IMG/VR virus record: IMGVR_UViG_2529292735_000017
DNA length: 46,878 nt
Strand: one strand, 5' to 3'
Source: a virus
Lineage: Duplodnaviria; Heunggongvirae; Uroviricota; Caudoviricetes
The position numbers and the translations under genes were made by a program. This document shows positions 1 through 42,554 of the stretch, one piece after another (the stretch's first letter is position 1; every line of letters starts with the position of its first letter). The notes under the pieces were generated by a model that searched no databases, had not been told where the DNA came from, and saw only the letters and a program-made list of their open reading frames with translations.

Positions 1-1
1 A

Positions 2-1297: not shown

Positions 1298-1316
1298 TAG
1301 TTAGTGTGGCTTTTAG

Positions 1317-1568
1317 TCAAGTAAGATGACGTCTTGGTCTTGCTGATGCCTGGCGCTCAATCCAGCGATCAATTTCTTCCAGGTTGTAAAAGCATGGACT
1401 GTTATCCCATGGCATACCGTCATGAGCGACATGCTTATATTCCCTTCCTTCCATAAACGATTTTTCCCGGGCCTTTTTTAACGTACCTTTTTTTATTCCT
1501 TTCAGCGCAATTAACTGCTCTTCGGATACCCATTTGCCGGGAGAGACAATCATGATTACTTCGCTCAT
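1317..1568 (-). CDS. Small excisionase-like protein (putative Xis)
   Basis: 83-aa ORF immediately upstream of int on same strand; assignment by position and size, not by a motif I can verify. Confidence 0.5.
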   Translation of the reverse strand: MSEVIMIVSPGKWVSEEQLIALKGIKKGTLKKAREKSFMEGREYKHVAHDGMPWDNSPCFYNLEEIDRWIERQASARPRRHLT

Positions 1569-1640
1569 CGATTTCTTTATCTCTTACATCAGACGAGCGC
1601 CGGTTGCAGAATACCAGTCACAACCGGCGACAGTTGAACA

Positions 1641-4112: not shown

Positions 4113-4204
4113 TTTGTTTTACCTCATTACAGATTTAAGGGTGAACAAATCCCTGCCATTGCTGGCATATAAGAATGAAATCGGATGTTTATTACGGAAC
4201 TGTT

Positions 4205-4396
4205 TTAAAGACCTGCCGGGATTTCGTTATTATCCTGGTGAATAACTTTATCGACCGGGTAACAGTTACCGGGAATTTTCTGTTCGGTTGCTGCAGTCAC
4301 ACACTCCTGCATTGTCCTGTGAACACTGACTGCAATATCAACTGGCTCTCCGGAAACAAGAAAAACTGTCAGAACAAGTGCAAATGCTGTATTCAT
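4205..4396 (-). CDS. ydfD: YdfD-like small protein (dicB operon)
   Basis: Internal Met gives 63-aa product MNTAFALVLTVFLVSGEPVDIAVSVHRTMQEC… matching my recollection of Qin YdfD; overlaps dicB stop. Confidence 0.7.
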   Translation of the reverse strand: MNTAFALVLTVFLVSGEPVDIAVSVHRTMQECVTAATEQKIPGNCYPVDKVIHQDNNEIPAGL

Positions 4397-4581
4397 TGCC
4401 AGCATCCTTTTTGTATCGGACGTAAACGGGCCAACATTGAAAGAATGCATATTTTATTTAATAGCTTCCGTTCGTGTTTTCTCTTGTTAATGGCATCTTC
4501 AGTAAATACAGGGTTACTGATAGTGACACCAATTTCAAAACAACCTTCAGACGTATTAACGTTTGGTAATAACGTTTCCAT
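4393..4581 (-). CDS. dicB: Cell division inhibitor DicB
   Basis: 62-aa product METLLPNVNTSEGCFEIGVTISNPVFTEDAINKRK… closely matches remembered K-12 DicB; correct spacing downstream of dicF. Confidence 0.8.
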   Translation of the reverse strand: METLLPNVNTSEGCFEIGVTISNPVFTEDAINKRKHERKLLNKICILSMLARLRPIQKGCWQ

Positions 4582-4755
4582 TATCGCGTCCTCAACAATG
4601 AATTTTGTGATGCGGTGCCTGGTGCCTCCAGGTGACGTTAACCAGTTAACAATTAACGCCGGATACAGAGAATCCACCCATAACACTGTTTTTGGTTTTA
4701 ACTGTTCCGCGTGCGCTCAGCCGCATTCACCGCATCACAAAATTCACTTTAAAAA

Positions 4756-4808
4756 GGGCGGCAGAGCAGTCACGGAGTAAAACTGATACCGCCAAACGTC
4801 ACCAGAAA
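4756..4808 (-). ncRNA. dicF: DicF small RNA (ftsZ-targeting)
   Basis: Minus-strand sequence TTTCTGGTGACGTTTGGCGGTATCAGTTTTACTCCGTGACTGCTCTGCCGCCC followed by a U-run matches my recollection of the 53-nt DicF; lies in the spacer upstream of dicB as in Qin. Confidence 0.75.
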
Positions 4809-5252
4809 ATTGATAACAGAGGGCGTTGCAGCGGGGTTGTCACTTAAGCGTATGGTCAACCTGACAACTCGGTGTCCTCAACGGGGAAGGAATAACCCCG
4901 CCATACTTACCGCCGCGCCATTTCGCGGGTTGCCACAACCGGAAGCGCACGGTCGAATTAAATTTAACGACACCGTACAGTGAGACGAACTTCGCCGTGC
5001 GCTTTCGTGTTGTATGCCTGCTTTTAACCACGTCAGGCGAGGTGGTATCCTTCTTATCCCGAATAACCAAGAAGGAAATCTATATGACTAAAGAAGAATT
5101 TATCTCTTATATTTTTGATAAAACGGTTGAAATGTATGCCGCTACTTACGGGTCCTGTAATCCTCTGAATAAACCAGAGGGGAAAGATGATTTCGACAAA
5201 ATTTACCGCTTCTTGGAGGACCGCTATATCAAAAGGTTAGAGGACGCAGGGA

Positions 5253-5630
5253 TCAAATCCCCAGTGAAGTCACCATTGTCCTGAGAACTTGCAGGACGTC
5301 ATGATCGTAACTTCCATCCAAACCGCGACGGCAAATTGCTTCTCGTATTACCGGAAGCAGTTCGCTGGAAATCTCGGTGCATATTTCACCTGATAATACG
5401 CCTGGCTCAAGTGAGAATATTGGTGAACTTACGGTCTTGGTCTCGACAGTTTCAGAGTCAGTGCCAACATTATAAAGCTCAACGAAAGCGGTCTTGATTT
5501 TCCGGGCCAGATCTTTTGCTGGCTCGCTTGCAATATCTTTCCCGATTTCTCGCAGCACAGAATGCAATGTATGAGCTGCTGTTTTCTGTACATCAGACGG
5601 TAAATCTTTAAATTCCATCGTCAGCCTCAT
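5253..5630 (-). CDS. YdfB/YdfC-like protein (dicB operon)
   Basis: 125-aa ORF at the position and combined length of ydfB+ydfC in Qin; true start may be the Met at 5618. Confidence 0.5.
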   Translation of the reverse strand: MRLTMEFKDLPSDVQKTAAHTLHSVLREIGKDIASEPAKDLARKIKTAFVELYNVGTDSETVETKTVSSPIFSLEPGVLSGEICTEISSELLPVIREAICRRGLDGSYDHDVLQVLRTMVTSLGI

Positions 5631-5782
5631 CAGTCAGTGTTTCTGGCTAACCAGCAACGCGCGCCAGATTCGGTTTTAAACGTTTTGCTTTTGGTATATG
5701 TCATCGCGGTGAACGTACCGTCCTGGTTGGGGAACACGCCACATACCAGAGATTCGCTGTTGCCAAGATCGATAGTATCCAT
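5630..5782 (-). CDS. ydfA: YdfA-like small protein
   Basis: Internal Met gives 50-aa MDTIDLGNSESLVCGVFPNQDGTFTAMTYTKSKTFKTESGARCWLARNTD, matching remembered YdfA; the longer ORF-track start is rejected. Confidence 0.7.
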   Translation of the reverse strand: MDTIDLGNSESLVCGVFPNQDGTFTAMTYTKSKTFKTESGARCWLARNTD

Positions 5783-5897
5783 GCTGACCTCATTTCCCCT
5801 TAACGCCGGGGTAGCGGAACTGTTTGCTGAGAACACCGTGCGGTGTCTTGATGGAAGTAATTTAGTTTTCTCATTATTTTTCGTCAAGGTTTTTTGA

Positions 5898-5917
5898 TGA
5901 GAAAACTCAAGTATTGG
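5898..5917. promoter_or_regulatory. Putative repressor operator copy in dicB-operon promoter region
   Basis: TGAGAAAACTCAAGTATTGG shares a 13-mer (TGAGAAAACTCAA) plus TATTGG with the site at 6433-6452; lies between dicA stop and ydfA start. Confidence 0.4.
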
Positions 5918-5974
5918 CGCAAGATAAAGCCAATACATTGAAATGTAAGGCTTTAAAATTTTGTGAAGGGATGA

Positions 5975-6382
5975 TTATTGATGCTTGTTGCGTTTGCGAG
6001 CCTCTAATAGCTCGGTGAACAGGCGATTAAAATTCTCAACGCGGGCGCGGAGTTCGCTGAGTTGTGCTTGTTGCTCTGATTTAGGAAGTGCGCGATACAA
6101 ACGCAGCATCTCTAACTCATCTTCCGATAAGTCTAAGGCACTATCGAGTGAAACAGGGGGAGCTGGTGTTTTGTCCTCGTCGCCAAACAGTATCCAGGTT
6201 GGTGAACATTGCAATACCTCGGCGAGGCGATGCAAATTTTGCCCGCGCGGGGCTGTATGGTCACTTTCCCATAATGAAATTGATGAGCCAGATACGCCAG
6301 CAGCTTTGCTTAAACCGTTTTGACTTAAGCCTACCTGCTTACGTCTTTCTCTAATGCGTTGACCTAAAGTTTTCTCGTTCAT
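5975..6382 (-). CDS. dicA: HTH XRE-family prophage repressor DicA (CI analogue)
   Basis: 135 aa from Met at 6382; …GQRIRERRKQVGLSQ…LQCSPTWILFGDEDK…SEQQAQLSELRARVENFNRLFTELLEARKR closely resembles remembered DicA. Confidence 0.85.
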   Translation of the reverse strand: MNEKTLGQRIRERRKQVGLSQNGLSKAAGVSGSSISLWESDHTAPRGQNLHRLAEVLQCSPTWILFGDEDKTPAPPVSLDSALDLSEDELEMLRLYRALPKSEQQAQLSELRARVENFNRLFTELLEARKRNKHQ

Positions 6383-6399
6383 ATTTAGATATCTTAATA

Positions 6400-6459
6400 A
6401 CCCTTGACTTGAGATTCCTTGAGTGATTAGCATTGAGAAAACTCAATATTGGAGGTGCG
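6400..6459. promoter_or_regulatory. Divergent dicA/dicC promoter-operator region
   Basis: 77-bp intergenic region with three TTGAG repeats and inverted repeat ATTGAG-aaaa-CTCAAT (6432-6447); GGAGG RBS at 6451-6455. Confidence 0.5.
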
Positions 6460-6687
6460 ATGTTTAAATCAGACGTAATTAATTTTTACGGTACGAAAGC
6501 CAAAGTAGCGAAAGCTGCTGGCGTTGACCCATCTGCTGTTTCTCAATGGCAAGAGCTGGTTCCTGAAGGTCGCGCGATGCGTCTACAGGAGGCATCTGGC
6601 GGCGAGCTTCTGTATGATCCCAAGGTTTATGACGAATATCGTAAGACGAAGCGGGCGGGGCGGTTGAACAATGAAAATCACTCCTGA
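6460..6687 (+). CDS. dicC: Cro-like regulator (DicC-like)
   Basis: 75 aa from ATG at 6460 with GGAGG RBS; small basic protein divergent from the repressor; …LVPEGRAMRLQEASGGELLYDPKVYDEYRK. Confidence 0.7.
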   Translation: MFKSDVINFYGTKAKVAKAAGVDPSAVSQWQELVPEGRAMRLQEASGGELLYDPKVYDEYRKTKRAGRLNNENHS

Positions 6688-7192
6688 ACAGGCTCGTGAG
6701 GCTCTGGATGCCTGGATATGTCGACCAGGAATGACACAGGAGCAGGCGACGATATTAATCACTGAAGCATTCTGGGCTTTGAAAGAGCGCCCGAACATCG
6801 ATGTTCAGCGTGTCACAGATGAAGGTGGCGCGGTTGATCAGCGAGCGCTTGGCGTTAATCGAGTGAAGATATTCGAACGCTGGAAGGCTATCGACACTAG
6901 GGATAAGCGTGAAAAGTTCACGGCGCTAGTGCCTGCAATTATGGAGGCTATCCGGATTAATGATTTCAGGTTGTATCGTGAAATTAGTGACGGAAAAAGC
7001 ATCACGTACATGATCGCCGGGTTAAACAAAGAATATGGCGATGTGGTGGAGTCCGGACTGCTTTTTGCTGATCCTGCCGTAGTGGATCGTGAAACTGACG
7101 AACTTATAGAAAAAGCAATTGCTTTCAAACTTGCGTATCGACAGCAATACCAACAAAAAGCTGGATGGAATTATGAGCCTTCTTTTTGCTGA
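6671..7192 (+). CDS. Hypothetical protein at the cII position (possibly YdaT-like)
   Basis: 173-aa ORF overlapping the cro-like gene end; family assignment is from memory only. Confidence 0.5.
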   Translation: MKITPEQAREALDAWICRPGMTQEQATILITEAFWALKERPNIDVQRVTDEGGAVDQRALGVNRVKIFERWKAIDTRDKREKFTALVPAIMEAIRINDFRLYREISDGKSITYMIAGLNKEYGDVVESGLLFADPAVVDRETDELIEKAIAFKLAYRQQYQQKAGWNYEPSFC

Positions 7193-8138
7193 ACGCCCAC
7201 TGGTTATAAACACACAGCTTGCGATGAAGATTGGCTTAAATGAAGCCATTGTGTTGCAGCAGTTGCATTACTGGTTGAGAGATACCAATTCCGGCATGGA
7301 ATGTGATGGTGTTCGCTGGATTTACAACACAACGGAACAATGGCTGGAACAGTTCCCATTCTGGTCAGAGTCAACGTTAAAGCGCGCGTTTGCAAGTCTG
7401 AAAACGCTGGGGCTTTTGCGTTGTGAAAAGCTCAATAAATCAAAGCGCGATATGACCAATTTCTACACGATCAACTACGGGAGCGAGCTTTTAGATGGTG
7501 GCAAATTGAGCGAATCCATCGGTTTAAAATGCGCCGCTCCATCAGGTCAAAATGACACGATGGAAGAGGTCAAAATGAAACGCTCCATTGGTTCAAAACG
7601 ACCCAATGTCATCGGGTCAAAATGGCCTGATGATCTTACAGAGAATACAACAGAGATTACTACAGAGAATAAAAACACTTTTCGTCCGGAAGCTTCGCAA
7701 CCGGACCCGCAGACCGCTGAACAGGATTTTTTAACCCGGAACCCCGACGCGGTTGTGTTTAGTGCGAAAAAACGCCAGTGGGGTAGCAGGGAGGATTTGG
7801 CGTGTGCGCAGTGGATTTGGGGGCGGATCGTGAACCTTTACGAACAGGCTGCCAGCGACGATGGAGAGATCATGCGACCAAAAGAGCCTAACTGGACAGC
7901 CTGGGCCAATGACGTGCGCACAATGCGGATGCTGGATGGCAGAAGCCACAGACAAATTTGCGAAATGTTTGGTCGGGTACAGCGAGATCAATTCTGGGTA
8001 AAAAACATCATGAGCCCGTCAAAACTCCGCGAAAAATGGGACGAACTGGTCATCCGCCTGGGACGTTCACCTGTACAGCGTTGTATGAATCATATTTCTG
8101 AACCGGATACAGAAATTCCGCCTGGTTTCAGAGGATAA
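7173..8138 (+). CDS. Phage replication initiation protein (replisome-organiser-like)
   Basis: 321 aa from ATG at 7173 (overlaps upstream stop); position after the cro/cII-like genes; acidic/basic-rich middle; the longer ORF-track start is rejected. Confidence 0.65.
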   Translation: MSLLFAERPLVINTQLAMKIGLNEAIVLQQLHYWLRDTNSGMECDGVRWIYNTTEQWLEQFPFWSESTLKRAFASLKTLGLLRCEKLNKSKRDMTNFYTINYGSELLDGGKLSESIGLKCAAPSGQNDTMEEVKMKRSIGSKRPNVIGSKWPDDLTENTTEITTENKNTFRPEASQPDPQTAEQDFLTRNPDAVVFSAKKRQWGSREDLACAQWIWGRIVNLYEQAASDDGEIMRPKEPNWTAWANDVRTMRMLDGRSHRQICEMFGRVQRDQFWVKNIMSPSKLREKWDELVIRLGRSPVQRCMNHISEPDTEIPPGFRG

Positions 8139-8178
8139 GTTTTGATTTCAGGTCATGAGGTAATTTTAAGGGGGACTT

Positions 8179-8580
8179 GTGGCAAAAGTTTTTACACAAG
8201 AAGAGCGGGAAAAAATTAAAGGGCAGGTGGTGGAACTCGTGCGCCAGAGCGGTCGTGAGACGTTACGGCAACTGGAAGCTAAAACAGGTGCGACTAGATA
8301 TCTGATGAGCGTTCTTGCCAGAGAGCTGGTAGCCAGTGGCGATGTATACAACTCCGGCTACGGGTTATTCCCGTCTGAACAGGCGCGTAAGGACTGGCAA
8401 AACGCCCGCAAAAAACTATCGAGGGCAAAGGTGAAGAAAACAGCTGTGGTTGATCCGGACCTTATCTGGTCGTTACCTGATGGAGAAATACGTCGCTACG
8501 ACAGTCGCCTAAACATAATCTGTCGCGAGTGCCGGATGAGTGAAGTTATGCAGCGCATACTGGCATTTTATCAGGGATAA
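8179..8580 (+). CDS. Hypothetical protein
   Basis: 133-aa ORF with GTG start after a purine-rich stretch; no recognisable motif. Confidence 0.5.
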   Translation: MAKVFTQEEREKIKGQVVELVRQSGRETLRQLEAKTGATRYLMSVLARELVASGDVYNSGYGLFPSEQARKDWQNARKKLSRAKVKKTAVVDPDLIWSLPDGEIRRYDSRLNIICRECRMSEVMQRILAFYQG

Positions 8581-9014
8581 TGTTAGGTATTTTAGACGTT
8601 ACTAGATTAAAAAGCATTAGTTCAGGAGTGAATTGACATTCTCATTTTTCATGGCACAGGGTAGATCTGGCGTGGTTGTCCGCTTTGTGCCAAGAGCGGA
8701 CGTTGGTATGCAAGAGCCCTCCAAAAGTTGATGGTTGGTTTGCAGGGGGGCTTAAAGAAACTGCACTTATCAAGTTGAAGTTCTGTATTCAGCGAAATCG
8801 TAGCACTCTGACGATAAGTAACTCCGGTACTCCGCTCTTCGATGAAGAACCAGAGTAATCCCCCCGAAAAACCAGCGCATCAAAATTGGATCTTCAGCGG
8901 TAGCTTATCGGCTATCGGAAGTACAGGTGTGGATTCGTGGTGAATTGCTTTGATAATAAACGATTAATACGGAAAAACGCATTAATCATTTATTAGCTTT
9001 TAGTAAACCACAAT

Positions 9015-10364
9015 TTATTCCGTTTTACATATCATAGTAGTCGATTGGAGAATATAGTTTCTGGGAATGTACTCTTCAAAGTGTTCGTCCTTTTTAAATA
9101 CATGAACTACATTTGGGAATAATTGATAGTCAACAGGGTGTATAGCGTTTGGATTATGGTACATGTACATGGCTGTACACCATGGTTCTTGATAGTTAGG
9201 GTCACTTACATCGGCTGAAAATGGATGTGGGGCTGCATCCTGATCAGTTTTAACACCACTGACGTACACTTTGAATCCACTCGCCTCTACACCTGCAAGA
9301 ATTCCCATCCGGTTAAACTTAGGTATGGTTGCTTGAGTAGTGAGTAAAACGGCAGAAACATAATTATTTTGTTCTGAGCCAAAAAAGTTCGACTTGATAC
9401 TTCTATTTTCATCTGTATGTCTTTCAATAGAAATGCCTGACTCAATATCAATCCCGTACAAATAGCTATGCAAGGCTTCGCTTGAGAAGGCCATGGACAT
9501 TCTTTTTGAATAATCCTGCATTGCTATGACAAATGGTTTGTTCTTTGTATGGTTGAGTTCCCAGTAATGAACTTTCTCTGGCTCAGGGCAATGCCGGACT
9601 TTTTTTAATAAACTTCTTGCAAACTTAAAAGGCATGACATTTAGAACATGTTTTCTTAATTCATCCATCTGTTCATCGTTAATGACTTTTCTTTCAAGAG
9701 GGGCTTCTGCTTCAGCAATGCTTACAGCCTCTACAGCAATTTCCACTCCAAATTTAGATAGCAGAAAATCTGGTTGATTGTATTCTCTATTCATTTCAAA
9801 GTCGAGTTCATAAAATACAGCGTTCAAATATAATTCAAATAACCTTGAATTAAATGCATCACTTTGAAAATCCCTTATAAATATTCCATCAGGATCTTTG
9901 AACCAGTATGCAAGTTCCTCAAGAACAATATATGCAGGGAAATGAAGAGGGTCTTCGAGGAGCATTTTTATATAAACATTCCTTTTTTTCTCTGGGACTT
10001 TACTCAAGAATAATGAAAAAGGTTTGGATGATTCATCGCCTTGCATGAATGTACCATTTTGGTGCTGCGCCAGCATCTTTGGTATGTCATCGTTCAAATT
10101 ATTAAGCAAGACATCCATTGAATCAAATGAAGCCAAGACGTTTATTGCTCTGAATTTTTTATCTAAATCCCGACCTAAGACTATTGCGTTAAAATCTTTA
10201 TCAATATTGCATATGATTATTGTGGATAACAATGTTATCCCATTCCCCTCATATTTAAACCAGCGTATCTCCTCAGAAAATGTCTTAAGGTAAGGTGAGC
10301 GACCGTAAAAATAAATATCAAATTGTTCTTTGCTGATCTCACTGAAGTGTAATCCTGCGTTCAT
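9015..10364 (-). CDS. Uncharacterised 449-aa protein (orphan moron; candidate defence/accessory gene)
   Basis: Long uninterrupted ORF on the strand opposite all flanking phage genes; visibly AT-rich; no Walker A, HExxH or other motif I can assign. Confidence 0.8.
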   Translation of the reverse strand: MNAGLHFSEISKEQFDIYFYGRSPYLKTFSEEIRWFKYEGNGITLLSTIIICNIDKDFNAIVLGRDLDKKFRAINVLASFDSMDVLLNNLNDDIPKMLAQHQNGTFMQGDESSKPFSLFLSKVPEKKRNVYIKMLLEDPLHFPAYIVLEELAYWFKDPDGIFIRDFQSDAFNSRLFELYLNAVFYELDFEMNREYNQPDFLLSKFGVEIAVEAVSIAEAEAPLERKVINDEQMDELRKHVLNVMPFKFARSLLKKVRHCPEPEKVHYWELNHTKNKPFVIAMQDYSKRMSMAFSSEALHSYLYGIDIESGISIERHTDENRSIKSNFFGSEQNNYVSAVLLTTQATIPKFNRMGILAGVEASGFKVYVSGVKTDQDAAPHPFSADVSDPNYQEPWCTAMYMYHNPNAIHPVDYQLFPNVVHVFKKDEHFEEYIPRNYILQSTTMICKTE

Positions 10365-10487
10365 ACCAATTCCTTTTCAATGAATAATTGGCCTTTAGGA
10401 GTGATTCCCTTTGTCTTTAATTCAGTTCTAACTAGTTCTTTAATCCAATAGCCTAAGCTCATCATGCAGTTGGATCATAAGACAACG

Positions 10488-10514
10488 CCCTATAGTGCTC
10501 GTGATACTATAGGG
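10488..10514. repeat. Perfect 9-bp inverted repeat (CCCTATAGT-n9-ACTATAGGG)
   Basis: Read directly; about 125 bp upstream of the 449-aa ORF start; no following T-run, so more likely an operator or RNA structure than a terminator. Confidence 0.6.
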
Positions 10515-11107
10515 CATCTGACCACACTGTTAACTGGAGTAACGACTATGGCAGGAATACAGCATAACCAAACTCACCCCAAACTTACATAGCGCTTTCT
10601 GGCCGTGAGCATAACAAGGTCCACTCCTCGCTCAAAGCGGACTAGAAGGTTAGCTTGTGTCGGACTTTGCGTATTAAATGACTAGTGGTTGAGCCCCATT
10701 TCCACAGAAAAAATCAGAGAAACTATACCCAATAGTTGTATTGAATCACTGACGAGACAGCCTCATATTCATCAGGACTGGTGTACGTCCAATACAGGAG
10801 GTTGTGGTGCTGGTTCTCAAATGTGCGCTGGCTATTACGGCTGTAATGGCGATTTATTGTCTTGCTATTGTTCTTATGGATCGCCTTTCTGACTGATTTC
10901 ACATTGGCGAGGTAACGGTAGTTAAGTAGAATGGCTGCGGGTGCTTGAGGCTATCTGCCTCGGGCATGAACACCAACGGCAGATAGAGAAAAGCCCCAGT
11001 TAACATTACGCGTCCTGCAAGACGCTTAACATTAATCTGAGGCCAATTTCATGCTAGACACATGTAGGTTAGCCTCTTACGTGCCGAAAGGCAAGGAGAA
11101 GCAGGCT

Positions 11108-11263
11108 ATGAAGCAGCAAAAGGCGATGTTAATCGCCCTGATCGTCATCTGTTTAACCGTCATAGTGACGGCACTGGTAACGAGGAAAGACCTCTGCGAG
11201 GTACGAATCCGAACCGGGCAGACGGAGGTCGCTGTCTTCACAGCTTACGAACCTGAGGAGTAA
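11108..11263 (+). CDS. hokD: Hok/Gef-family type I toxin (HokD/RelF-like)
   Basis: 51 aa MKQQKAMLIALIVICLTVIVTALVTRKDLCEVRIRTGQTEVAVFTAYEPEE: a single transmembrane helix plus conserved Cys/Tyr tail typical of Hok; AGGAGAAG RBS. Confidence 0.85.
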   Translation: MKQQKAMLIALIVICLTVIVTALVTRKDLCEVRIRTGQTEVAVFTAYEPEE

Positions 11264-11332
11264 GAGACCCGGCGAGGGAGAAATCCCTCGCCACCTCTGA
11301 TGTGGCAGGCATCCTCAACGCACCCGCACTTA

Positions 11333-11352
11333 ACCCGCTTCGGCGGGTTTTT
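11333..11352 (+). terminator. Intrinsic terminator downstream of hok
   Basis: ACCCGC-TTCG-GCGGGT stem-loop followed by a T-run; preceded by a second hairpin GGCGAGGG…CCCTCGCC. Confidence 0.5.
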
Positions 11353-11479
11353 GTTTTTATTTTCAACGCGTTTGAAGTTCTGGACGGTGCCGGAATAGAA
11401 TCAAAAATACTTAAGTAGCGCGCAGGGATAAGAGGGATGGTCCCTTAAAGGGGAGAGCTAATTATCCGGAAGGATTCTG

Positions 11480-11731
11480 ATGATGAACATCGAAGAACTG
11501 CGTAAAATTTTTTGTGAAGATGGCCTCTATGCGGTGTGCGTTGAAAATGGAAATCTTGTTAGTCATTACCGCATTATGTGTTTGCGAAAGAATGGGGCTG
11601 CGTTAATTAATTTTGTGGATGGTCGAGTGACAGACGGATTTATCTTGCGCGAAGGTGAGTTTGTCACTTCATTACAGGCACTGAAAGAGATCGGAATAAA
11701 AGCAGGCTTTTCAGCTTTTGCAGAAGAATAA
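11480..11731 (+). CDS. rem: Rem-like hypothetical protein
   Basis: 83-aa ORF; size and position next to hok and ydfU match Qin rem; identity from memory. Confidence 0.55.
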   Translation: MMNIEELRKIFCEDGLYAVCVENGNLVSHYRIMCLRKNGAALINFVDGRVTDGFILREGEFVTSLQALKEIGIKAGFSAFAEE

Positions 11732-11797
11732 ACTCATCTACAATCTTGCGCGGGGCTGAACTCCCGCTGAGTAACACCGTGCCACCGGAGAAAACCG

Positions 11798-12076
11798 ATG
11801 GCACGCAACGTAAAATATTACAATTCTGATAATTCGCCCGTTCTTGCCTGCACGCACGAGCGGTATTCTCACGCATTCAAGTCTGAATGGTTCCAACACC
11901 CTCCATGCACTGAAGAGCAGGCTGAATGGATAATTCAGTGTTACCGCAGGCGCGGATACGAGGTTAAGAAAGCCCTTAGTCTCGACTACCGTCACTGGAT
12001 AATCTCAGTCAGATTGCCTTACTCCGAACGCCCACCACGTGCGTCCCGCACTTTCCAGCAACGGATCTGGAGGTAA
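11798..12076 (+). CDS. Hypothetical small protein
   Basis: 92-aa ORF ending 2 nt before the ydfU GTG start; weak RBS; coding status uncertain. Confidence 0.35.
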   Translation: MARNVKYYNSDNSPVLACTHERYSHAFKSEWFQHPPCTEEQAEWIIQCYRRRGYEVKKALSLDYRHWIISVRLPYSERPPRASRTFQQRIWR

Positions 12077-12077
12077 C

Positions 12078-13127
12078 GTGCGGGTATTACTTAGACCTGT
12101 TCTGGTGCCTGAGCTTGGGCTGGTGGTCCTTAAGCCGGGCCGTGAATCCATACAGATATTTCATAATCCTCGAGTGCTGGTGGAACCGGAACCAAAAAGC
12201 ATGCGTAATCTGCCATCCGGAGTCGTTCCTGCCGTTGGCCAGCCGCTGGCGGAAGACAAAACATTGCTGCCGTTTTTTAGTAACGAACGGGTGATTCGTG
12301 CTGCTGGCGGCGTTGGCGCATTGTCTGACTGGCTATTACGTCATGTTACATCCTGCCAGTGGCCTAATGGAGATTACCATCACACTGAAACAGTCATTCA
12401 CCGTTATGGTACCGGCGCAATGGTGTTGTGTTGGCACTGCGACAACCAACTGCGTGACCAGACATCGGAATCACTGGAGCTGCTTGCTCAACAAAATCTG
12501 ACAGCATGGGTGATTGACGTCATCCGTCACGCAATAAGCGGTACGCAGGAGCGGGAATTATCTTTGGCTGAATTATCCTGGTGGGCGGTCTGCAATCAGG
12601 TGGTGGATGCACTACCTGAGGCTGTATCGCGTCGTTCGCTGGGATTACCAGCGGAAAAAATCTGCTCGGTGTACCGCGAAAGCGACATCGTACCGGGAGA
12701 GCAGACCGCCACCAGCATACTGAAACAGCGCACAAAAAATCTTGCGCCGCTGCCTCACGCCCACCAGCAACAGAACCCACCACAGGAAAAGACGGTGGTC
12801 AGCATTGCCGTTGATCCTGAGTCTCCGGAATCTTTCATGAAACGACCTAAACGTCGCCGCTGGGTTAACGAGAAATACAAACGCTGGGTGAAGACACAGC
12901 CGTGTGCGTGTTGTGGTAAGCCAGCCGACGATCCCCATCACCTGATTGGTCATGGTCAGGGCGGAATGGGGACAAAATCTCACGATATTTTCACGCTACC
13001 GCTGTGTCGGGAGCATCACAACGAGCTTCATGCGGATCCTCTGGCGTTCGAAGAAAAGCATGGTTCTCAGGTTGATTTAATTTTTCGTTTTCTTGATCAC
13101 GCCTTTGCAACTGGCGTGCTTGGGTAA
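12078..13127 (+). CDS. ydfU: YdfU-like DUF968-family protein with C-terminal Cys/His (HNH-like) motif
   Basis: GTG start at 12078 with perfect GGAGG RBS gives 349 aa; C-terminal …CACCGK…HHLIGHGQGG…CREHHNELH. Confidence 0.8.
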   Translation: MRVLLRPVLVPELGLVVLKPGRESIQIFHNPRVLVEPEPKSMRNLPSGVVPAVGQPLAEDKTLLPFFSNERVIRAAGGVGALSDWLLRHVTSCQWPNGDYHHTETVIHRYGTGAMVLCWHCDNQLRDQTSESLELLAQQNLTAWVIDVIRHAISGTQERELSLAELSWWAVCNQVVDALPEAVSRRSLGLPAEKICSVYRESDIVPGEQTATSILKQRTKNLAPLPHAHQQQNPPQEKTVVSIAVDPESPESFMKRPKRRRWVNEKYKRWVKTQPCACCGKPADDPHHLIGHGQGGMGTKSHDIFTLPLCREHHNELHADPLAFEEKHGSQVDLIFRFLDHAFATGVLG

Positions 13128-13139
13128 AAGAGGTGACTG

Positions 13140-13496
13140 ATGCTCATAGATTTGGTTTTACCTTACCCGCCGACGGTGAACACTTACTGGCGACGCCGTG
13201 GCAGCACATATTTTATCTCGGAGGAGGGAAAGCGTTATCGCCGGGCTGTGGCGCTTATTGTTCGCCAGCAGCGGCTGAAATTAAGCCTGTCCGGAAGGCT
13301 GGCGATAAAGGTGATTGCAGAGCCACCGGATAAGCGTCGTCGCGACCTGGACAATATCCTGAAAGCACCGCTGGATGCGCTGACGCATGCGGGAGTGTTA
13401 ATGGACGATGAGCAGTTTGATGAAATCAATATCGTTCGTGGTCAGCCAGTATCTGGCGGACGTCTGGGGGTGAAGATTTACCCCATAATGCATTAA
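13140..13496 (+). CDS. rusA: Holliday junction resolvase RusA
   Basis: 118 aa; …RRRDLDNILKAPLDALTHAGVLMDDEQ… resembles the RusA catalytic core. Confidence 0.85.
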   Translation: MLIDLVLPYPPTVNTYWRRRGSTYFISEEGKRYRRAVALIVRQQRLKLSLSGRLAIKVIAEPPDKRRRDLDNILKAPLDALTHAGVLMDDEQFDEINIVRGQPVSGGRLGVKIYPIMH

Positions 13497-13510
13497 GAGC
13501 AGGTCAAAAA

Positions 13511-14332
13511 ATGAAACTGGAAGATTTACCGAAATACTACTCCCCAAAATCCCCTGGCCTGACCGATGCATCGGCCTCAACGTCAAAAGATGCGCTGAGT
13601 ATCACTGATGTGATGGCCGCGCAGGGCATGACACAGAATCGGGCTGAGATGGTTTTTTCTGCGTTCCTGGGGAAAATGGGCATCAGTATGAATGACAGGG
13701 CGCGGGCAACAGAATTACTGGCAGATTATGCACTCAGTCGGTGCGATCGTGTGGCGGCGTTGAGAAAACTTCCGGCAGAAATAAAACCGGTAGTGATGCG
13801 CATTATGGCTTCGTACGCTTTTGAGGATTATGCCCGCAGCGCAGCGAGTAAAAAGCAGTGCCCTTGTTGCTATGGGGAAAAATTTATTGAAAGCATAGTT
13901 TTTACAAACAAGGTCCAGTATCCGGATGGTAAGCCGCCGGTATGGGCAAAGTGTACGAAAGGTGTGTATCCGTCTTACTGGGAAGAATGGAAAAAAGTCA
14001 GGGAGGTGGTAAAAGTTGCCTGTCCGGAGTGTGGCGGAAAGGGTGAGGTTTCCACCGCCTGTAAGGATTGCCGTGGGCGTGGTGTCGCCATTCATCGTGA
14101 AGAGTCGGTAAAACGTGGTATGCCTGTTGTCAGAGACTGCCAGCGTTGTGGTGGTCGTGGCTATGAAAGACTACCATCAACGGAGGCATTTAATGCTATA
14201 TGCGAGGTGACAAACCAGATAACACGCGCGTCATGGGAAAAAACAGTTAAGAAATTCTATGATGCGCTGGTGACCCGGTTTGATATTGAAGAAGCATGGG
14301 CTGAGCGGCAGTTAAAAAAGGTAACTAGGTAA
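13511..14332 (+). CDS. Late-gene antitermination protein Q
   Basis: 273 aa with CxxC…CxxC zinc-binding clusters; immediately upstream of a pR'-like promoter and terminator. Confidence 0.8.
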   Translation: MKLEDLPKYYSPKSPGLTDASASTSKDALSITDVMAAQGMTQNRAEMVFSAFLGKMGISMNDRARATELLADYALSRCDRVAALRKLPAEIKPVVMRIMASYAFEDYARSAASKKQCPCCYGEKFIESIVFTNKVQYPDGKPPVWAKCTKGVYPSYWEEWKKVREVVKVACPECGGKGEVSTACKDCRGRGVAIHREESVKRGMPVVRDCQRCGGRGYERLPSTEAFNAICEVTNQITRASWEKTVKKFYDALVTRFDIEEAWAERQLKKVTR

Positions 14333-14337
14333 CAAGG

Positions 14338-14365
14338 TTGATTTTTCCGGAATCTGTGGTAAATT
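14338..14365 (+). promoter_or_regulatory. Putative late promoter pR'
   Basis: TTGATT (-35, 14338-14343), 16-nt spacer, TGgTAAATT extended -10 (14357-14365), directly after the Q stop. Confidence 0.5.
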
Positions 14366-14414
14366 CGTCATAATGATGGGCTTTTTATGCCTGACGTTAG
14401 AAGAGTTTCTACAA

Positions 14415-14436
14415 CCCGCCGCCGAGCGGGTTTTTT
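14415..14436 (+). terminator. Putative tR' intrinsic terminator
   Basis: CCCGC-cgccga-GCGGG hairpin followed by TTTTTT, about 50 nt downstream of the promoter. Confidence 0.5.
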
Positions 14437-14476
14437 ATTGCGGAATTAATTACGGACCGTTATTATTCTGCTCCCG

Positions 14477-14552
14477 GCCCTTTAGCTCAGTGGTGAGAGC
14501 GAGCGACTCATAATCGCCAGGTCGCTGGTTCAAATCCAGCAAGGGCCACCAT
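14477..14552 (+). tRNA. tRNA, anticodon CAT (ileX/ileZ-like tRNA-Ile2; Met not excluded by anticodon alone)
   Basis: 76 nt with 7-bp acceptor stem GGCCCTT/AAGGGCC, anticodon loop cTCATAa, GGTTCAAATCC T-arm, 3' CCA; closely resembles remembered E. coli ileX. Confidence 0.85.
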
Positions 14553-14651
14553 CACAAACCGCCATTAGCTTATCAGGAAGAGCAGACGACACGATAACAG
14601 GGTTGTTGGTGCGGGGGCGGGTCCCCGATGGCGGTCCATTATCGGTATTCA

Positions 14652-14728
14652 GCGTTGTTAGCTCAGCCGGACAGAGCAATTGCCTTCTAAGCAATCGGTC
14701 ACTGGTTCGAATCCAGTACAGCGCGCCA
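14652..14728 (+). tRNA. tRNA-Arg (anticodon TCT)
   Basis: 77 nt; acceptor stem GCGTTGT/ACAGCGC, anticodon loop CTTCTAA, GGTTCGAATCC T-arm, 3' CCA. Confidence 0.85.
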
Positions 14729-14865
14729 TATTCATTCTTCCAGATTCCTTCCGGCAGAGCCTTATACTGGAATATACCTGGCTCAGGATATTGTTGAAAA
14801 CATAATATGTTTGTCAAAAATAAAAGTTCTGTTAAGTATTGATTGAGTGTTTGTTATACGGTCTA

Positions 14866-15192
14866 ATGGTTTTTTCAGCATTAAATATTTATCATTCATA
14901 TGGTGTGGGTAGAGTGAATATTGATGAGGCGTCGGGGTGTTTCATCCTTAGGCAGCGCATTGATATAGTCAATGCAGCACGAGCAAAGGCCTTCAGCCGT
15001 TTGACAGTTTTGTTCTGTGCTCCTGATCGTCTTTCGGGAAGAGACGTTATTATTCTGAATAGTGATGCTATACAGAGGGTTTGCGATGAGTTCATGGTTG
15101 CTAATTCAGAATTATTTGCTCTTGTTCAGGAGTACAACAGAATAGCCAGGACCTGTGGTATGGATGAACTTCGGATTACTCATCTGGGGTAG
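14866..15192 (+). CDS. Hypothetical protein (late-region cargo)
   Basis: ORF with first ATG at 14866 and no convincing RBS; between the tRNAs and the lipoprotein genes. Confidence 0.35.
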   Translation: MVFSALNIYHSYGVGRVNIDEASGCFILRQRIDIVNAARAKAFSRLTVLFCAPDRLSGRDVIILNSDAIQRVCDEFMVANSELFALVQEYNRIARTCGMDELRITHLG

Positions 15193-15725
15193 ATACATAT
15201 CTGGATTATCACCTGTTACGGTAAAAAGTGATTGCTTACTGTTTTTGTGAATGGCATTGCAGCAGCCGGATAATGTCAGTGCTGGCTGACGGTGTGCTGG
15301 TGGCGGGTGTGGTGGTTGTTGCTTTCCCGTTGCTGAAAAAGAAAACGCCAGACTGTTAGCCGGGTATCAGTTAGCGGGAGAAATTTTTAAATACTTCACA
15401 ATTCAGGCGGTTGACTGTTCTCTGGTTTGCGGGGAGTTTGTTAAAAGAAACTGGCATGGTGAATCCCCCTGTGCGGAGGGGCAATCAGCGAGTAGGTATA
15501 TGGGATAATCGCGGATTCAGGTGCTGGTACTGAATTCACCGGGAGGCACCCGGCACCATGCACTTCAATAGATTCTCTCCACATTATGGATATTCTTTCA
15601 GAATATCCCACGCAGACTTTGTGTAAATGTTAACAAATGTGCGTTTTATTTGATCTGATTCGCTGTTTGAGCGTCCAAAACAACGGTATATATAATCCTT
15701 TACTATATGACATATGTGAGGAAAA

Positions 15726-16154
15726 ATGGGTTTTCGTAGCGCATCAATTCTTACGTTGATTATTAGTGGGATTATTATCGGGTGCACTGATGCTGTATCG
15801 ACAAATTATCATGACCGTACATCATATTACTCCGATAAAGCAATAGAGACACAGTATGTGAGTTCATCTGAACGTACTTCTGATGTTAGTGAGGATATCC
15901 GTCTGTATGCCCATCAAATCAAGAGCGCCATCGAAAAACAGTTCGGGGATGCGAGTAAGTATTCAGGAAAAGAGTGTACACTGAGAATGCATATGGCCCC
16001 GAATGGCCTTCTACTGGAGGTTAAAAGAGAAAGTGGAGACCTCGATTTATGTCGTGAAGCGATGAATGCGATAAAGAATGCTGATATACCTGCCCCCCCT
16101 TCGCCGGAAGTATATAAAGTATTTCAAAATGGGGTGCTGGATTTTAAACCCTGA
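15726..16154 (+). CDS. Lipoprotein with TolA C-terminal (domain III)-like domain
   Basis: Signal peptide with lipobox IIGC; C-terminal …YAHQIKSAIEKQFGDASKYSGKECTLRMHMAPNGLLLEVKRESGDLDLCREAMNAIKNADIPAPPSPEVYKVFQNGVLDFKP closely parallels the remembered E. coli TolA C-terminus. Confidence 0.8.
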   Translation: MGFRSASILTLIISGIIIGCTDAVSTNYHDRTSYYSDKAIETQYVSSSERTSDVSEDIRLYAHQIKSAIEKQFGDASKYSGKECTLRMHMAPNGLLLEVKRESGDLDLCREAMNAIKNADIPAPPSPEVYKVFQNGVLDFKP

Positions 16155-16304
16155 TATTTATTGTTTTGTAATAAACGGTTTCGGCTTAGGTTTGTTCTGA
16201 CACAACTACGGCACTGAGCTAAATTTAGCGGATAGTCAGCTCTGAGCCAGTGGCGGACGTAACAACTACTATTGCTGAGATTTTAATGGATTGAGGAGCA
16301 AGAA

Positions 16305-16700
16305 GTGGGATTAAAGAAAATCGTTATGTTGACTTTTTGGGTCGGTTTTGTTGCGGGATGCACACCTTTACACCCTTCAGATTGCCACAAAACTACTGCT
16401 ACAGGTAGTTGCAGTTCAGGACGCTGGGATGATCAGGATGAATGGGGGGCGCAAGCGCGGGGAATCAGAGCTGCAATTAATGCCAAACTTGATGAGCCGC
16501 ATAACTGGAAAGGGAAAAAATGCAGGTTGCATATGGAATTCTCTCAGGATGGCACGGCGTTAAAAATATCTACCAGTAACGGTGATAAAGCCTATTGCGA
16601 AGCGATAAAGTCCGCAGCTCATAAAGCCAAATTTCCGGCCTTCAACAATCCGGAAGTCTACAGAGATTTTCAGAAATCTGGCTTTGACATGCGAGGTTAG
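16305..16700 (+). CDS. Paralogous lipoprotein with TolA C-terminal-like domain
   Basis: GTG start with GAGGAG RBS; lipobox VAGC; shares the C…C…PEVY…FQ…G(F/L)D(F/M) pattern with the upstream paralogue. Confidence 0.75.
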   Translation: MGLKKIVMLTFWVGFVAGCTPLHPSDCHKTTATGSCSSGRWDDQDEWGAQARGIRAAINAKLDEPHNWKGKKCRLHMEFSQDGTALKISTSNGDKAYCEAIKSAAHKAKFPAFNNPEVYRDFQKSGFDMRG

Positions 16701-17007
16701 CTCTTCAATTACTATATCTCATTCATAGCAAACTGACAGATTTGATGATGTTCTATATACGAAACCTGTGATGTCAAGTCTGAGCTAATACAAATAAACA
16801 TAATATCAGAGAAATACATTTTATTAGCTCGCTACGGCGAGCTTTTTATATTGCATCGTCTCCAGCATATATATCAATTAAGGCTCTGATTGATGTGTCT
16901 GGAAGCCTACACATAATAGACTGGCCCCCTGAATCTCCAGACAACCAATATCACTTAAATAAGTGATAGTCTTAATACTAGTTTTTAGACTAGTCATTGG
17001 AGAGCAG

Positions 17008-17337
17008 ATGATTGATGTCTTAGGACCGGAGAAACGCAGACGGCGTACTACACAGGAAAAGATCGCTATTGTTCAGCAGAGTTTTGAACCGGGAATGACG
17101 GTCTCCCTTGTTGCCCGGCAACACGGTGTGGCAGCCAGCCAGTTATTTCTCTGGCGCAAGCAATACCAGGAGGGAAGTCTTACTGCTGTGGCCGCAGGAG
17201 AGCAGGTCGTTCCTGCCTCTGAACTTGCTGCTGCCATGAAGCAGATTAAGAACTCCAGCGCCTGCTCGGCAAAAAAACGATGGAAAATGAACTCCTTAAA
17301 GAAGCCGTTGAATACGGGCGTGCAAAAAAGTGGATAG
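17008..17337 (+). CDS. insC: IS2 transposase OrfA (InsC), C-terminus apparently frame-altered
   Basis: [41 protein letters not shown]… matches InsC up to …AAMKQIK, then diverges from my recollection, consistent with a 1-nt deletion. Confidence 0.7.
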
Positions 17338-18235
17338 CGCACGCGCCCTTATTGCCCGGGGATGGGGAGTAAGCTTAGTCAGCCGTTGTCTCCGGGTGTC
17401 GCGTGCGCAGTTGCACGTAATTCTCAGACGAACCGATGACTGGAAAGATGGTCGCCGCAGCCGTCACTCAGATGATACGGATGTGCTTCTCCGTATACAC
17501 CATGTTATCGGAGAGCTGCCCACGTATGGTTATCGTCGGGTATGGGCGCTGCTTCGCAGACAGGCCGAACTTGATGGTATGCCTGCGATCAATGCCAAAC
17601 GTGTTTACCGGATCATGCGCCAGAATGCGCTGTTGCTTGAGCGAAAAACCGCTGTACCGCCATCGAAACGGGCACATACTGGCAAAGTGGCCGTGAAAGA
17701 AAGCAATCAACGATGGTGCTCTGACGGGTTCGAGTTCCGCTGTGATAACGGAGAAAAACTGCGAGTCACGTTCGCGCTGGACTGCTGTGACCGTGAGGCA
17801 CTGCACTGGGCAGTCACTACGGGCGGCTTCGACAGTGAAACAGTACAGGACGTAATGCTGGGAGCGGTGGAACGCCGCTTCGGCAACGAGCTTCCGGCGT
17901 CTCCAGTAGAGTGGCTGACGGATAATGGTTCATGCTACCGGGCTAATGAAACACGGCAGTTTGCCCGGATGTTGGGGCTTGAACCGAAGAACACGGCGGT
18001 GCGGAGTCCGGAGAGTAACGGCATAGCAGAGAGCTTCGTGAAAACGATAAAGCGTGACTACATCAGTATCATGCCTAAACCAGACGGGTTAACGGCAGCA
18101 AAGAACCTTGCAGAGGCGTTCGAGCATTATAACGAATGGCATCCGCATAGTGCACTGGGTTATCGCTCGCCACGGGAATATCTGCGGCAGCAGGCCAGTA
18201 ATGGGTTAAGTGATAACAGGTGTCTGGAAATATAG
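17330..18235 (+). CDS. insD: IS2 transposase OrfB (InsD; DDE catalytic domain)
   Basis: 301-aa [26 protein letters not shown]… typical IS3-family OrfB. Confidence 0.85.
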
Positions 18236-18286
18236 GGGCAAATCCACATAATAACTATGCCATCCGTTCCGTGCGGAGGTGAGGCT

Positions 18287-18502
18287 ATGAAATCCATGGA
18301 CAAAATTTCAACAGGCATTGCCTACGGCACCTCCGCAGGCAGTGCTGGCTACTGGTTTTTACAGCTGCTCGATAAAGTCACGCCCTCACAGTGGGCAGCA
18401 ATAGGTGTGCTGGGTAGCCTGGTATTTGGCCTGCTGACGTACCTGACAAATCTTTATTTCAAGATTAAAGAAGACAGGCGTAAGGCTGCGAGAGGAGAGT
18501 AA
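18287..18502 (+). CDS. S: Class II holin (phage 21 S-like pinholin) with dual start
   Basis: [71 protein letters not shown]; Met1-Lys-Ser-Met4 dual-start motif; two transmembrane segments. Confidence 0.85.
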
Positions 18503-18570
18503 TCCAATGACTCAATACTATGAACTGGTTGTGAAAGGAGGTAAGCGTCAACGGAGCACCGTATTGACGC

Positions 18571-18930
18571 TTATTTATTGGTGAGTACTACGTTCCATGG
18601 CAGGAGTTCGTCAACACGGTTGGAGGGCCATTCCGGCAGTACGCTCAGAATATGGCGCAGATACGCTTCCGGATCGATACCGTTCAGTCGGCAGGTGCCG
18701 ATCAGCCCGTACAGCAGTGCTCCACGCTCGCCGCCGTGATCGCTACCGAAGAACACGTAATTTTTCTTTCCGAGACAGACTGCACGAAGCGCTCTTTCCG
18801 CTGTGTTATTGTCCACCTCCGCCAGACCGTCATCACTGTAATAACAGAGGGCGTCCCACTGATTCAGTACATAGCTGAACGCTTCGCCCAGTCTGGATTT
18901 TTTCGACAGCGTGCCATTCTTCTCCACCAT
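18571..18930 (-). pseudogene. IS66 TnpC C-terminal fragment
   Basis: …DNNTAERALRAVCLGKKNYVFFGSDHGGERGALLYGLIGTCRLNGIDPEAYLRHIL… conserved IS66 transposase C-terminus; N-terminal three quarters absent. Confidence 0.75.
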
Positions 18931-18947
18931 CCATTCATGCAGCGACG

Positions 18948-19193
18948 TCAGTAACGCTTTGCTTCGCTGCTGCCTGGCTGCAAGACGCTCTGACTCTGGT
19001 AATCTCCGTATTTCATTCTCGATGGCGTACAGTTCACTTCTCCCCGTCGGCCACGGAAGATAAACAGGTGACCGGAGAAGGGGTTATCATCCAGCACATG
19101 CTGTATCTGCTCCCCCAGACCGTTGAAGGATTTACGCATATCAGTAACGCCGGCAACGAGCCAGATACGGGTACCTGATGGGAGTGAAATCAT
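18948..19193 (-). pseudogene. IS66 orf2 (TnpB) truncated
   Basis: MISLPSGTRIWLVAGVTDMRKSFNGLGEQIQHVLDDNPFSGHLFIFRGRRG then unrelated sequence, marking the deletion junction. Confidence 0.7.
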
Positions 19194-19627
19194 CGTCCCC
19201 TCCCGGTCAGCTCACGGATCAACACCGTGAGCAGCTCTGGTGAAGGATTTTCCAGCATCATTTTACCGTAATGGAATTCCACATGGCAGGAAGCTGCACA
19301 AGCAACTGATAATGCCTCCGGAGCAGGAGCATCTGTAGCACAGCGCGGGGGGTCGATAAGTTCCACTGGAACCAGAGTCGGAGAGGCCGGAAAAGATTGT
19401 GATACTGTAGGGCCTACAATAGTTGGAGGCATTCTACGAGAAATACGTCCTTCTCTTTGCCAGAGGCGTAGCCATTTAAAAATCAGGTTGTTATCAACGC
19501 CATGTTCCCGGGCCAGTTGTGCAACATTGGCATTTGGTTTCGAAGCCAGTTCAACCATATGAAGTTTAAATTCATTAGAAAATATCCGGCGGGTTCCGGA
19601 GCGCCAGTCTGTAGGTTTATCCATCAA
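19190..19627 (-). CDS. IS66-family orf1 (TnpA accessory protein)
   Basis: 145-aa ORF with HTH-like N-terminus, first gene of the IS66 operon. Confidence 0.75.
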   Translation of the reverse strand: MMDKPTDWRSGTRRIFSNEFKLHMVELASKPNANVAQLAREHGVDNNLIFKWLRLWQREGRISRRMPPTIVGPTVSQSFPASPTLVPVELIDPPRCATDAPAPEALSVACAASCHVEFHYGKMMLENPSPELLTVLIRELTGRGR

Positions 19628-19991
19628 TAGAACTCCGTCTAATTTAGAAGGAGCTCTAATTTAGTCTGCAAGGAGCAGGTGTTACAGACGGCATTGGCTT
19701 TACGCTTACGAAAGGAGTCCGTAATTTTGAGAATAAAGTTACGGTAACTGTAGCCTTACAGGACAAAGAACGCTTTGACGGTGAAATTTTTGGCCTGGAT
19801 GTCGCCATGGACCGTGTTGAAGGAGCTGCGCTGGAGTTTTATGAGGCAGCAGCCAGAATGAGCGTCCGGCAAGTCTTCCTGGAAGTAGCAGAAAAATTGT
19901 CAGAAAAAGTTGAGTCTTATCTGCAGCATCAGTACTCCTTTAAGATTGAAAATCCTGCCAATAAGCACGAGCGTCCTCATCATAAATATCT

Positions 19992-21019
<1,028 letters not shown>

Positions 21020-42496: not shown

Positions 42497-42522
42497 TTAG
42501 CCAGGTAACACAGTGTTATGAC

Positions 42523-42549
42523 AGCCCGCCGGTTCAGGCGGGCTTTTTT
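42523..42549 (+). terminator. Intrinsic terminator after lom
   Basis: AGCCCGCC-ggttca-GGCGGGCT stem-loop followed by TTTTTT. Confidence 0.55.
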
Positions 42550-42554
42550 GTGGG

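Follow-up and report, generated by a model that had tools for sequence, protein, structure and literature searches.

We identified an IS2 element that probably cannot make its own transposase: a common allele of this insertion sequence, lacking one A of the K81 codon, inserted upstream of the holin gene essD in a prophage of Escherichia coli DEC14C and predicted to be transposase null. The DNA analyzed here, referred to as the window, is the whole stretch of 46,878 nt. It is 100% identical to two stretches (20,243 nt and 8,151 nt) of contig AIHM01000042.1 from the E. coli DEC14C draft assembly GCA_000250455.2 (2012) and its coordinates make it the final 46,878 nt of a contig that measures 85,921 nt in all. 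There is direct sequence evidence for the insertion and where it begins and ends, for the duplication, for the deletion, and for the consequences for the reading frames. The initial annotation had described a 1330-bp IS2 flanked by a CATAA duplication, and both direct reading and a repeat search returned the same coordinates, ends, duplication, and length. The element and its boundaries are as follows.

16917-18246, + strand: IS2 element, 1330 bp, the allele encoding WP_089541817.1 minus one A (direct reading and repeat search).
16912-16916, no strand: left copy of the 5-bp target-site duplication CATAA (direct reading), present as a single copy at the empty site.
18247-18251, no strand: right copy of the target-site duplication CATAA (direct reading and empty-site comparison).
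16917-16958, + strand: IRL, the 42-bp left inverted repeat, starting 5'-TA (repeat search; length from PMC3299598).
18206-18246, + strand: IRR, the 41-bp right inverted repeat, ending CA-3' (repeat search; length from PMC3299598).

On direct reading, the left end of the element is TAGACTGG... and the right end is ...AAATCCA; in a longer reading of positions 16700 to 18500, the left end is TAGACTGGCCCCCTGAATCTCCAGACAACC from 16917 and the right end is ...GGAAATATAGGGGCAAATCCA up to 18246. The repeat search of the window paired 16926-16958 with 18206-18238. The element thus carries the family traits of IS2, namely, imperfect inverted repeats of ~41/42 bp ending 5'-TA ... CA-3' (42/41 bp in PMC3299598) and a 5-bp target-site duplication. 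The start of essD lies 35 bp beyond the right-hand CATAA.

Two references carry the empty site, the prophage of strain KE48 and phage mEp460_ev081 (LR597641.1). Both read ...GCCTACACATAATAACTATGCC... with one CATAA, which marks the repeat as a genuine target duplication rather than a chance one, and the simple transposition proposed at the outset is borne out. The insertion was simple and recent. IS2 would have entered by the normal IS3-family copy-out/paste-in route; it duplicated CATAA and now separates the TolA-like cargo genes from the holin gene essD, in the intergenic region of an mEp460-like (Qin-type) lambdoid prophage carried by E. coli DEC14C. Exact-pattern scans found no instance of the left IS2 junction in metagenomes or species representatives.

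The element is indeed 1 bp short, since IS2A of E. coli K-12 is annotated at 1331 bp, a length shared by the closest public copies. To place the missing base, we aligned the window IS2 with seven other copies (K-12 IS2A, the copies of strains L73 and 98218, and four copies from the same intergenic region of other genomes). The sole length difference among the eight was one base in ...CAGATT-AAGAAC..., at the following position.

17248-17249, + strand: the 1-nt deletion, with AA in place of the AAA found in all reference copies (codons K81/E82; multiple alignment).

All seven reference copies, including K-12 IS2A, read ATTAAAGAA at the indel (ATT AAA GAA). The initial annotation had suspected the loss of a single G and had proposed alignment to a reference IS2 to locate it; the alignment put the indel at 17248-17249 and showed a copy that is not identical to intact IS2, but the references read AAAGAA rather than AAGGAA, and the base lost is an A of AAA.

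The 1-nt deletion is also the sole difference between the window copy (1330 bp) and the 1331-bp WP_089541817.1 isoform, found for example on the chromosome of L73 and in 98218: the window copy matches L73 at every aligned base, with no substitutions and one gap. This isoform is widespread (99.9% identity to the window copy), and 1067 records carry a copy at least 99% identical to the window IS2. IS2A of K-12 MG1655 (1331 bp, insC1/insD1) shares the 42/41-bp IRL and IRR ending TA...CA, the 5-bp duplication, orfA (HTH) overlapping orfB (DDE) in -1 phase, and the A6G heptamer. In contrast, the window copy differs from it by 57 substitutions and one gap in 1331 nt (95.6 to 95.7% identity), with one A missing at the K81 codon and an A7 run in place of the K-12 AAGAAAA. 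The ISfinder criterion for an isoform is at least 95% nucleotide identity to the reference IS2, and the window copy lies above 95%. Apart from its deletion, this is an ordinary IS2 insertion, real but routine.

With one A lost, the reading frames of the element are arranged as follows.

17008-17337, + strand: frameshifted orfA', 109 aa, with residues 1-81 (HTH) native and residues 82-109 out of frame (ORF and frame analysis).
17271-17277, + strand: A7 run of allele-specific lysine codons (AAGAAAA in K-12), not the recoding site.
17324-17330, + strand: A AAA AAG (A6G), the programmed -1 frameshift heptamer, invariant in 8/8 aligned copies.
17330-18235, + strand: orfB, intact, with the rve/DDE catalytic domain, identical to the L73 copy (ORF, frame, and domain analysis).

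The departure of OrfA from its native sequence after ...AAMKQIK (K81), noticed in the initial annotation, was confirmed: translation from the ATG at 17008 is native to K81, after which 28 out-of-frame residues replace the native sequence up to a stop at 17335-17337 (native OrfA has 121 aa). Pfam HTH_Tnp_1 covers residues 8-80 of OrfA', and the domains of OrfB are HTH_21, rve, and rve_3. The reconstructed OrfAB contains all of D240, D306, and E342 (DDE numbering of OrfAB from PMC3219604), and these residues are supplied by the intact orfB. A -1 slip at GCA AAA AAG reproduces the 409-aa OrfAB that is annotated by PGAP as a programmed frameshift, and A6G is the published slippery window of IS2 (PMC3219604). 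The A7 run had been taken for this window, an assignment that did not hold: the -1 frame after the A7 run meets a TGA at 17288-17290, the frame of orfB does not open until 17312, and the A7 run is specific to this allele.

The deletion exchanges OrfA residues 82-121, including the leucine-zipper-like oligomerisation motif, for the 28 out-of-frame residues. The substitutions L83V, K89M, and L97H in this motif cause loss of function (PMC3219604), and we checked the numbering of L83, K89, and L97 in this allele. The A6G heptamer, HTH_Tnp_1, and rve are all present, but the upstream frame is now +1 relative to native orfA and the 0/-1 relationship is broken. From the new frame, a -1 slip at A6G leads back to the old orfA frame and not to orfB, which only a -2/+1 slip would enter. 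Because the zipper-like motif is lost and the -1 slip misses orfB, the copy is predicted to be transposase null, making neither OrfA nor OrfAB transposase.

This prediction depends on the deletion being genuine, which we consider probable. The same deletion sits in IS2 copies at other loci in two other strains, and the deletion is therefore probably real. DEC14B has a full 1330-bp IS2 with the identical deletion at a different locus, inside an adhesin-like gene, with its own duplication (CTTCA) and 1 SNP. EPECa12 has an IS2 copy with the identical deletion, a mosaic in which one block of SNPs is of the K-12 type, and the exact 109-aa frameshifted product is recorded from this strain. It seems to us unlikely that the A was lost through an artefact of sequencing or assembly in the draft and that the true element is a normal autonomous 1331-bp IS2, although several observations point that way. 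The source is a draft contig from 2012, and the interior of a multicopy IS in draft assemblies is often a collapsed consensus of several copies, as the one at this site may be. The only other indels of the window relative to mEp460_ev081 are three single-A losses in A-runs, which fits homopolymer miscalls. Moreover, not one of the 5376 places matched in 5426 complete E. coli genomes shows the deletion, and exact-pattern scans with a 37-mer spanning it returned no match in GTDB species representatives, JGI metagenomes, or IMG/VR. Against an artefact, the DEC14B and EPECa12 assemblies hold the same deletion in different genomic contexts; AAA is a short homopolymer, whereas A8, T8, and five T7 runs of the same region are uncontracted; and a systematic pipeline error would be expected to put the 109-aa product into far more assemblies than the small number on record.

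Three other distinct deletions were found in the 90% protein cluster, a lost T in an NCTC isolate and A deletions in P0299438.9 and in a gut metagenome. We rejected the idea of a hot spot for 1-nt deletions around K81 as ascertainment bias, since only deletions at nearby codons fall in that cluster.

Both ends of the element are intact, so other IS2 copies could move it in trans, as we infer. It is conceivable, though we think it improbable, that the deletion-bearing IS2 is still mobile, either through efficient trans-complementation or through an infrequent -2/+1 slip at the A6 run, and that it arrived in the prophage already defective. The identical allele is present at two or more other loci, one of them with its own 5-bp duplication, and the A6 run (17324-17329) falls within the overlap between the opening of the orfB frame at 17312 and the OrfA' stop at 17335-17337. 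However, transposases of the IS3 family prefer to act in cis, the allele is known from only three loci, and the EPECa12 mosaic implies that gene conversion between IS2 copies can spread the allele without transposition. Further, a -2/+1 fusion would be without the zipper-like motif, in which point mutations abolish function (PMC3219604).

The surroundings of the element are those of a Qin-type lambdoid prophage, with the following features.

2-1297: integrase (annotation and ORF).
13511-14332, + strand: late antiterminator Q gene (annotation of the identical KE48 segment).
Between the Q gene and the tR'-like terminator: promoter-like stretch TTGATT / TG-n-TAAATT, inferred by eye.
14413-14432: tR'-like terminator hairpin (terminator scan).
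After the 14413-14432 hairpin and before the cargo genes: two tRNA genes.
15726-16154 and 16305-16700: two TolA-C-terminal cargo genes.
16826-16843, + strand: terminator-like hairpin with a T-run, downstream of the second TolA-C-terminal cargo gene.
18287-18502, + strand: essD, phage-21-type class II holin, 71 aa, intact (Pfam Phage_holin_2_1, E = 5.5e-36).
18541-19709, - strand: internally deleted IS66-family element, 1169 bp, ISEc47/ISEc23-like, with the 8-bp duplication GAAAGGAG.
19992-20525: lysozyme, downstream of the holin.

Past essD follow, in order, ydfR, rrrQ, rzpQ, cold-shock genes, terminase, and head and tail genes. The lambdoid late-operon layout is therefore present, with Q, a terminator, and then, farther along the same strand, holin and endolysin. 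The same gene order (Q, tRNAs, TolA-like cargo, essD, ydfR, rrrQ, rzpQ) is shared by mEp460_ev081 and the KE48 prophage, which represent the same phage genome as the window. Phage mEp460_ev081 is 99.97% identical to the window over the early/regulatory 16.9 kb (5 SNPs) and 100% identical across the holin region, while the KE48 prophage has 7 mismatches over window positions 1-16916 (99.95% identity) and a 100% identical essD region. Both differ from the window in their empty CATAA site, in having no IS66-family remnant, and in their intact ynfN, protease/capsid, and tape-measure genes.

Over ~39 kb, the window differs from mEp460_ev081 by 8 SNPs (7 of them transitions) and three single-A deletions, listed here.

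21869: A7 to A6 in ynfN.
28234: A4 to A3, a frameshift in the protease/capsid fusion gene.
35090: A7 to A6, a frameshift in the tape-measure gene.

In addition, the IS66-family element breaks ydfR at codon 11, between the holin and lysozyme genes. Judging from its sequence, this prophage already looks defective, with ydfR interrupted and the protease/capsid and tape-measure genes frameshifted. The initial annotation had proposed an assay of lysis and particle production after induction, but because of these other predicted lesions such an assay would not isolate the effect of IS2. The protein cluster of protease/capsid frameshifts neither proves nor disproves the change from A4 to A3, as its members are frameshifted at different upstream positions, and a truncated IS66-family TnpC fragment, considered as a marker for the same locus in DEC14B, is widespread and uninformative.

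The placement of IS2 between the late control region and the genes that it serves was upheld: the element lies beyond the Q gene (13511-14332) and the tR'-like terminator (14413-14432) and ahead of the lysis and structural genes. The late promoter was missed by a consensus scan and was placed by eye only. Two promoter-like sites adjoin the element; in both, the duplicated CATAA and the T that follows it form a -10-like CATAAT.

16890-16917, + strand: native promoter-like site TTGATG-16-CATAAT, whose -10 is the duplicated target and which now faces IRL (9/12 consensus).
18225-18252, + strand: hybrid promoter-like site with TGGAAA from IRR, a 16-nt spacer, and genomic CATAAT, 35 bp upstream of essD (9/12).

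Whatever transcriptional effect IS2 may have on the lysis genes is something that we infer. In lambda biology, Q-modified RNA polymerase is terminator resistant and should pass through IS2, so little polarity is expected after induction. The polarity raised in the initial annotation is also largely moot given the lesions in ydfR, capsid, and tape-measure genes. A regulatory role, in which the insertion blocks late transcription into the lysis genes or the IRR plus CATAAT promoter drives the holin, seems to us quite unlikely. The location between the Q/tR' region and essD would suit such a role, and the ~900 nt of orfB, which would be largely untranslated, could admit Rho. TGGAAA is by its geometry the -35 element of Pjunc, the IS2 minicircle junction promoter (PMC3299598), so that TGGAAA-16-CATAAT shares this element with a known promoter, and hybrid promoters formed with IS ends are documented in general (PMC12095673). 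However, the match is only 9/12 and sites of this grade are common (12 observed versus 6.6 +/- 3.0 expected), the spacer is 16 nt where the junction promoter is reported to require 17 nt (PMC3299598), and promoter activity of the isolated IS2 right end was undetectable (PMC12095673). In any case, with capsid, tape-measure, and ydfR genes damaged, no phage would be produced whatever the IS2 does.

IS2 also occupies this site elsewhere. Rac-like prophage remnants of MB56, DSM 103246, and CP53 have an IS2 inserted at exactly this bond, identically oriented and likewise flanked by a CATAA duplication. The IS2 alleles of these three differ by 26 to 33 substitutions among themselves and by 46 to 61 from the window copy, whereas the flanks of their insertions differ by only 0.08 to 0.7%. 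The DEC14C insertion is independent of these Rac-type insertions, because a near-identical phage has the empty site. In strain 2017.17.03CC, an IS2 lies 13 bp upstream of the site with the duplication CTGAA. An apparent IS2 at the same site in strain 98218 was rejected; that copy is in the same intergenic region, 146 bp upstream, with the duplication CCTGT.

Close to the insertion point is a sequence that resembles part of the IS2 end.

16895-16904, + strand: GTGTCTGGAA, an exact 10-mer of the inner (binding-domain) sequence of IRR at 18220-18229, in the same orientation.

This 10-mer lies 12 bp to the left of the insertion point, and it and its IRR counterpart are the only two exact copies in the window. 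A match of at least 10 nt to either IS2 end within 40 bp occurs for ~0.95% of KE48 prophage positions, giving a P of about 0.0095 that is post hoc. Insertions of IS911 and of other IS3/IS30-family elements can adjoin sequences resembling their own ends. The window resembles such IS911-like end-directed insertion in having a 10-mer of the IRR binding domain 12 bp away and in the reuse of one bond by different alleles. This post hoc resemblance hints that IS2 may be targeted by likeness to its own end. The CATAA site as a sequence-directed IS2 hot spot, at which GTGTCTGGAA recruits transposase, together with a frameshifted allele that is still spreading (three loci), is a combination that we regard as doubtful. 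Such a hot spot would explain four IS2 alleles at one bond and in one orientation in two prophage backgrounds, as well as the IS2 insertions 13 and 146 bp upstream. Some of the allele diversity at the site could stem from gene conversion between IS2 copies, which the EPECa12 mosaic shows to occur. Four other IS2 sites that we checked had no such motif, only 6- to 7-mers, and in the literature we found no biochemical or genetic evidence for end-directed IS2 targeting; a search for IS2 hot spots was unproductive.

For the element itself, the analysis yields two corrections, the identity of the missing base and the position of the real recoding site of IS2, and the window copy should be annotated as a pseudogene or a non-autonomous element. 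If end-directed targeting is true, the CATAA site would be a natural example of it for IS2, which is here only a mildly interesting lead; otherwise, the insertion has little importance beyond annotation. For the host strain, the mEp460-like prophage of DEC14C appears to be a recently disabled copy of a phage whose deposited genome is apparently intact.

Four different IS2 alleles occupied one identical bond, in the same orientation, upstream of the holin gene: the copy in the window (left target duplication at 16912-16916) and those at 3418-4748 in three loci from other genomes (L003, L004, and L005). This shared bond spanned two prophage backgrounds, and further IS2 copies lay 13 and 146 bp upstream of it. 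An exact copy of a 10-mer from the IS2 right-end binding region was found at 16895-16904, 12 bp from the insertion site (P about 0.01, assessed post hoc).

One-nucleotide deletions also occurred in IS2 copies elsewhere. The copy on EPECa12 contig AKNH01000051.1 (1-1280) carried the same A deletion as the window copy together with two additional 1-nt deletions, and K-12-type SNPs formed a block at IS positions 704-992. On the basis of this block, the copy is a mosaic, which indicates gene conversion between IS2 alleles. The copy in UGLH01000006.1 (5910-7063; labelled Klebsiella pneumoniae NCTC) was cut off by an IS21-family element and had a different 1-nt deletion, a T of ATT, giving the identical 109-amino-acid product (a frameshifted OrfA'). 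The adjoining genes had the domain content of the E. coli ghrA-ycdX-ycdY-ycdZ region, so the species label of this record may be wrong.

Other features of the prophage were as follows.

14476-14551: tRNA-Met (CAT), identified by ARAGORN
18541-19709, minus strand: internally deleted IS66-family element, ISEc47/ISEc23-like, 1169 bp, ends GTAAGCGT...
18533-18540 and 19710-19717: 8-bp duplication GAAAGGAG bounding the IS66-family element
21869: A7 to A6, directly past the ynfN start
28234: A4 to A3, ClpP-protease/major-capsid fusion gene
35090: A7 to A6, tape-measure gene

The IS66-family element, sited between holin and lysozyme, broke ydfR (DUF1327) at codon 11. The three single-A deletions in A-runs were identified relative to phage mEp460_ev081 and the KE48 prophage, and those at 28234 and 35090 frameshifted essential structural genes. 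The three contractions may reflect either genuine decay or homopolymer miscalls in the draft assembly.

ARAGORN called the tRNA gene tRNA-Met, and the identical gene in KE48 was annotated as tRNA-Ile by PGAP. It is presumably of the lysidine-modified type, which lambdoid phages often carry in the interval from Q to their lysis genes.

The tail-fibre and tail-fibre-assembly region (42331-46149) was the sole part of the prophage substantially divergent from KE48 and mEp460_ev081, with 96.6% identity in places and an unaligned gap at 45264-45418. This divergence suggests that host-range genes were swapped by recombination.
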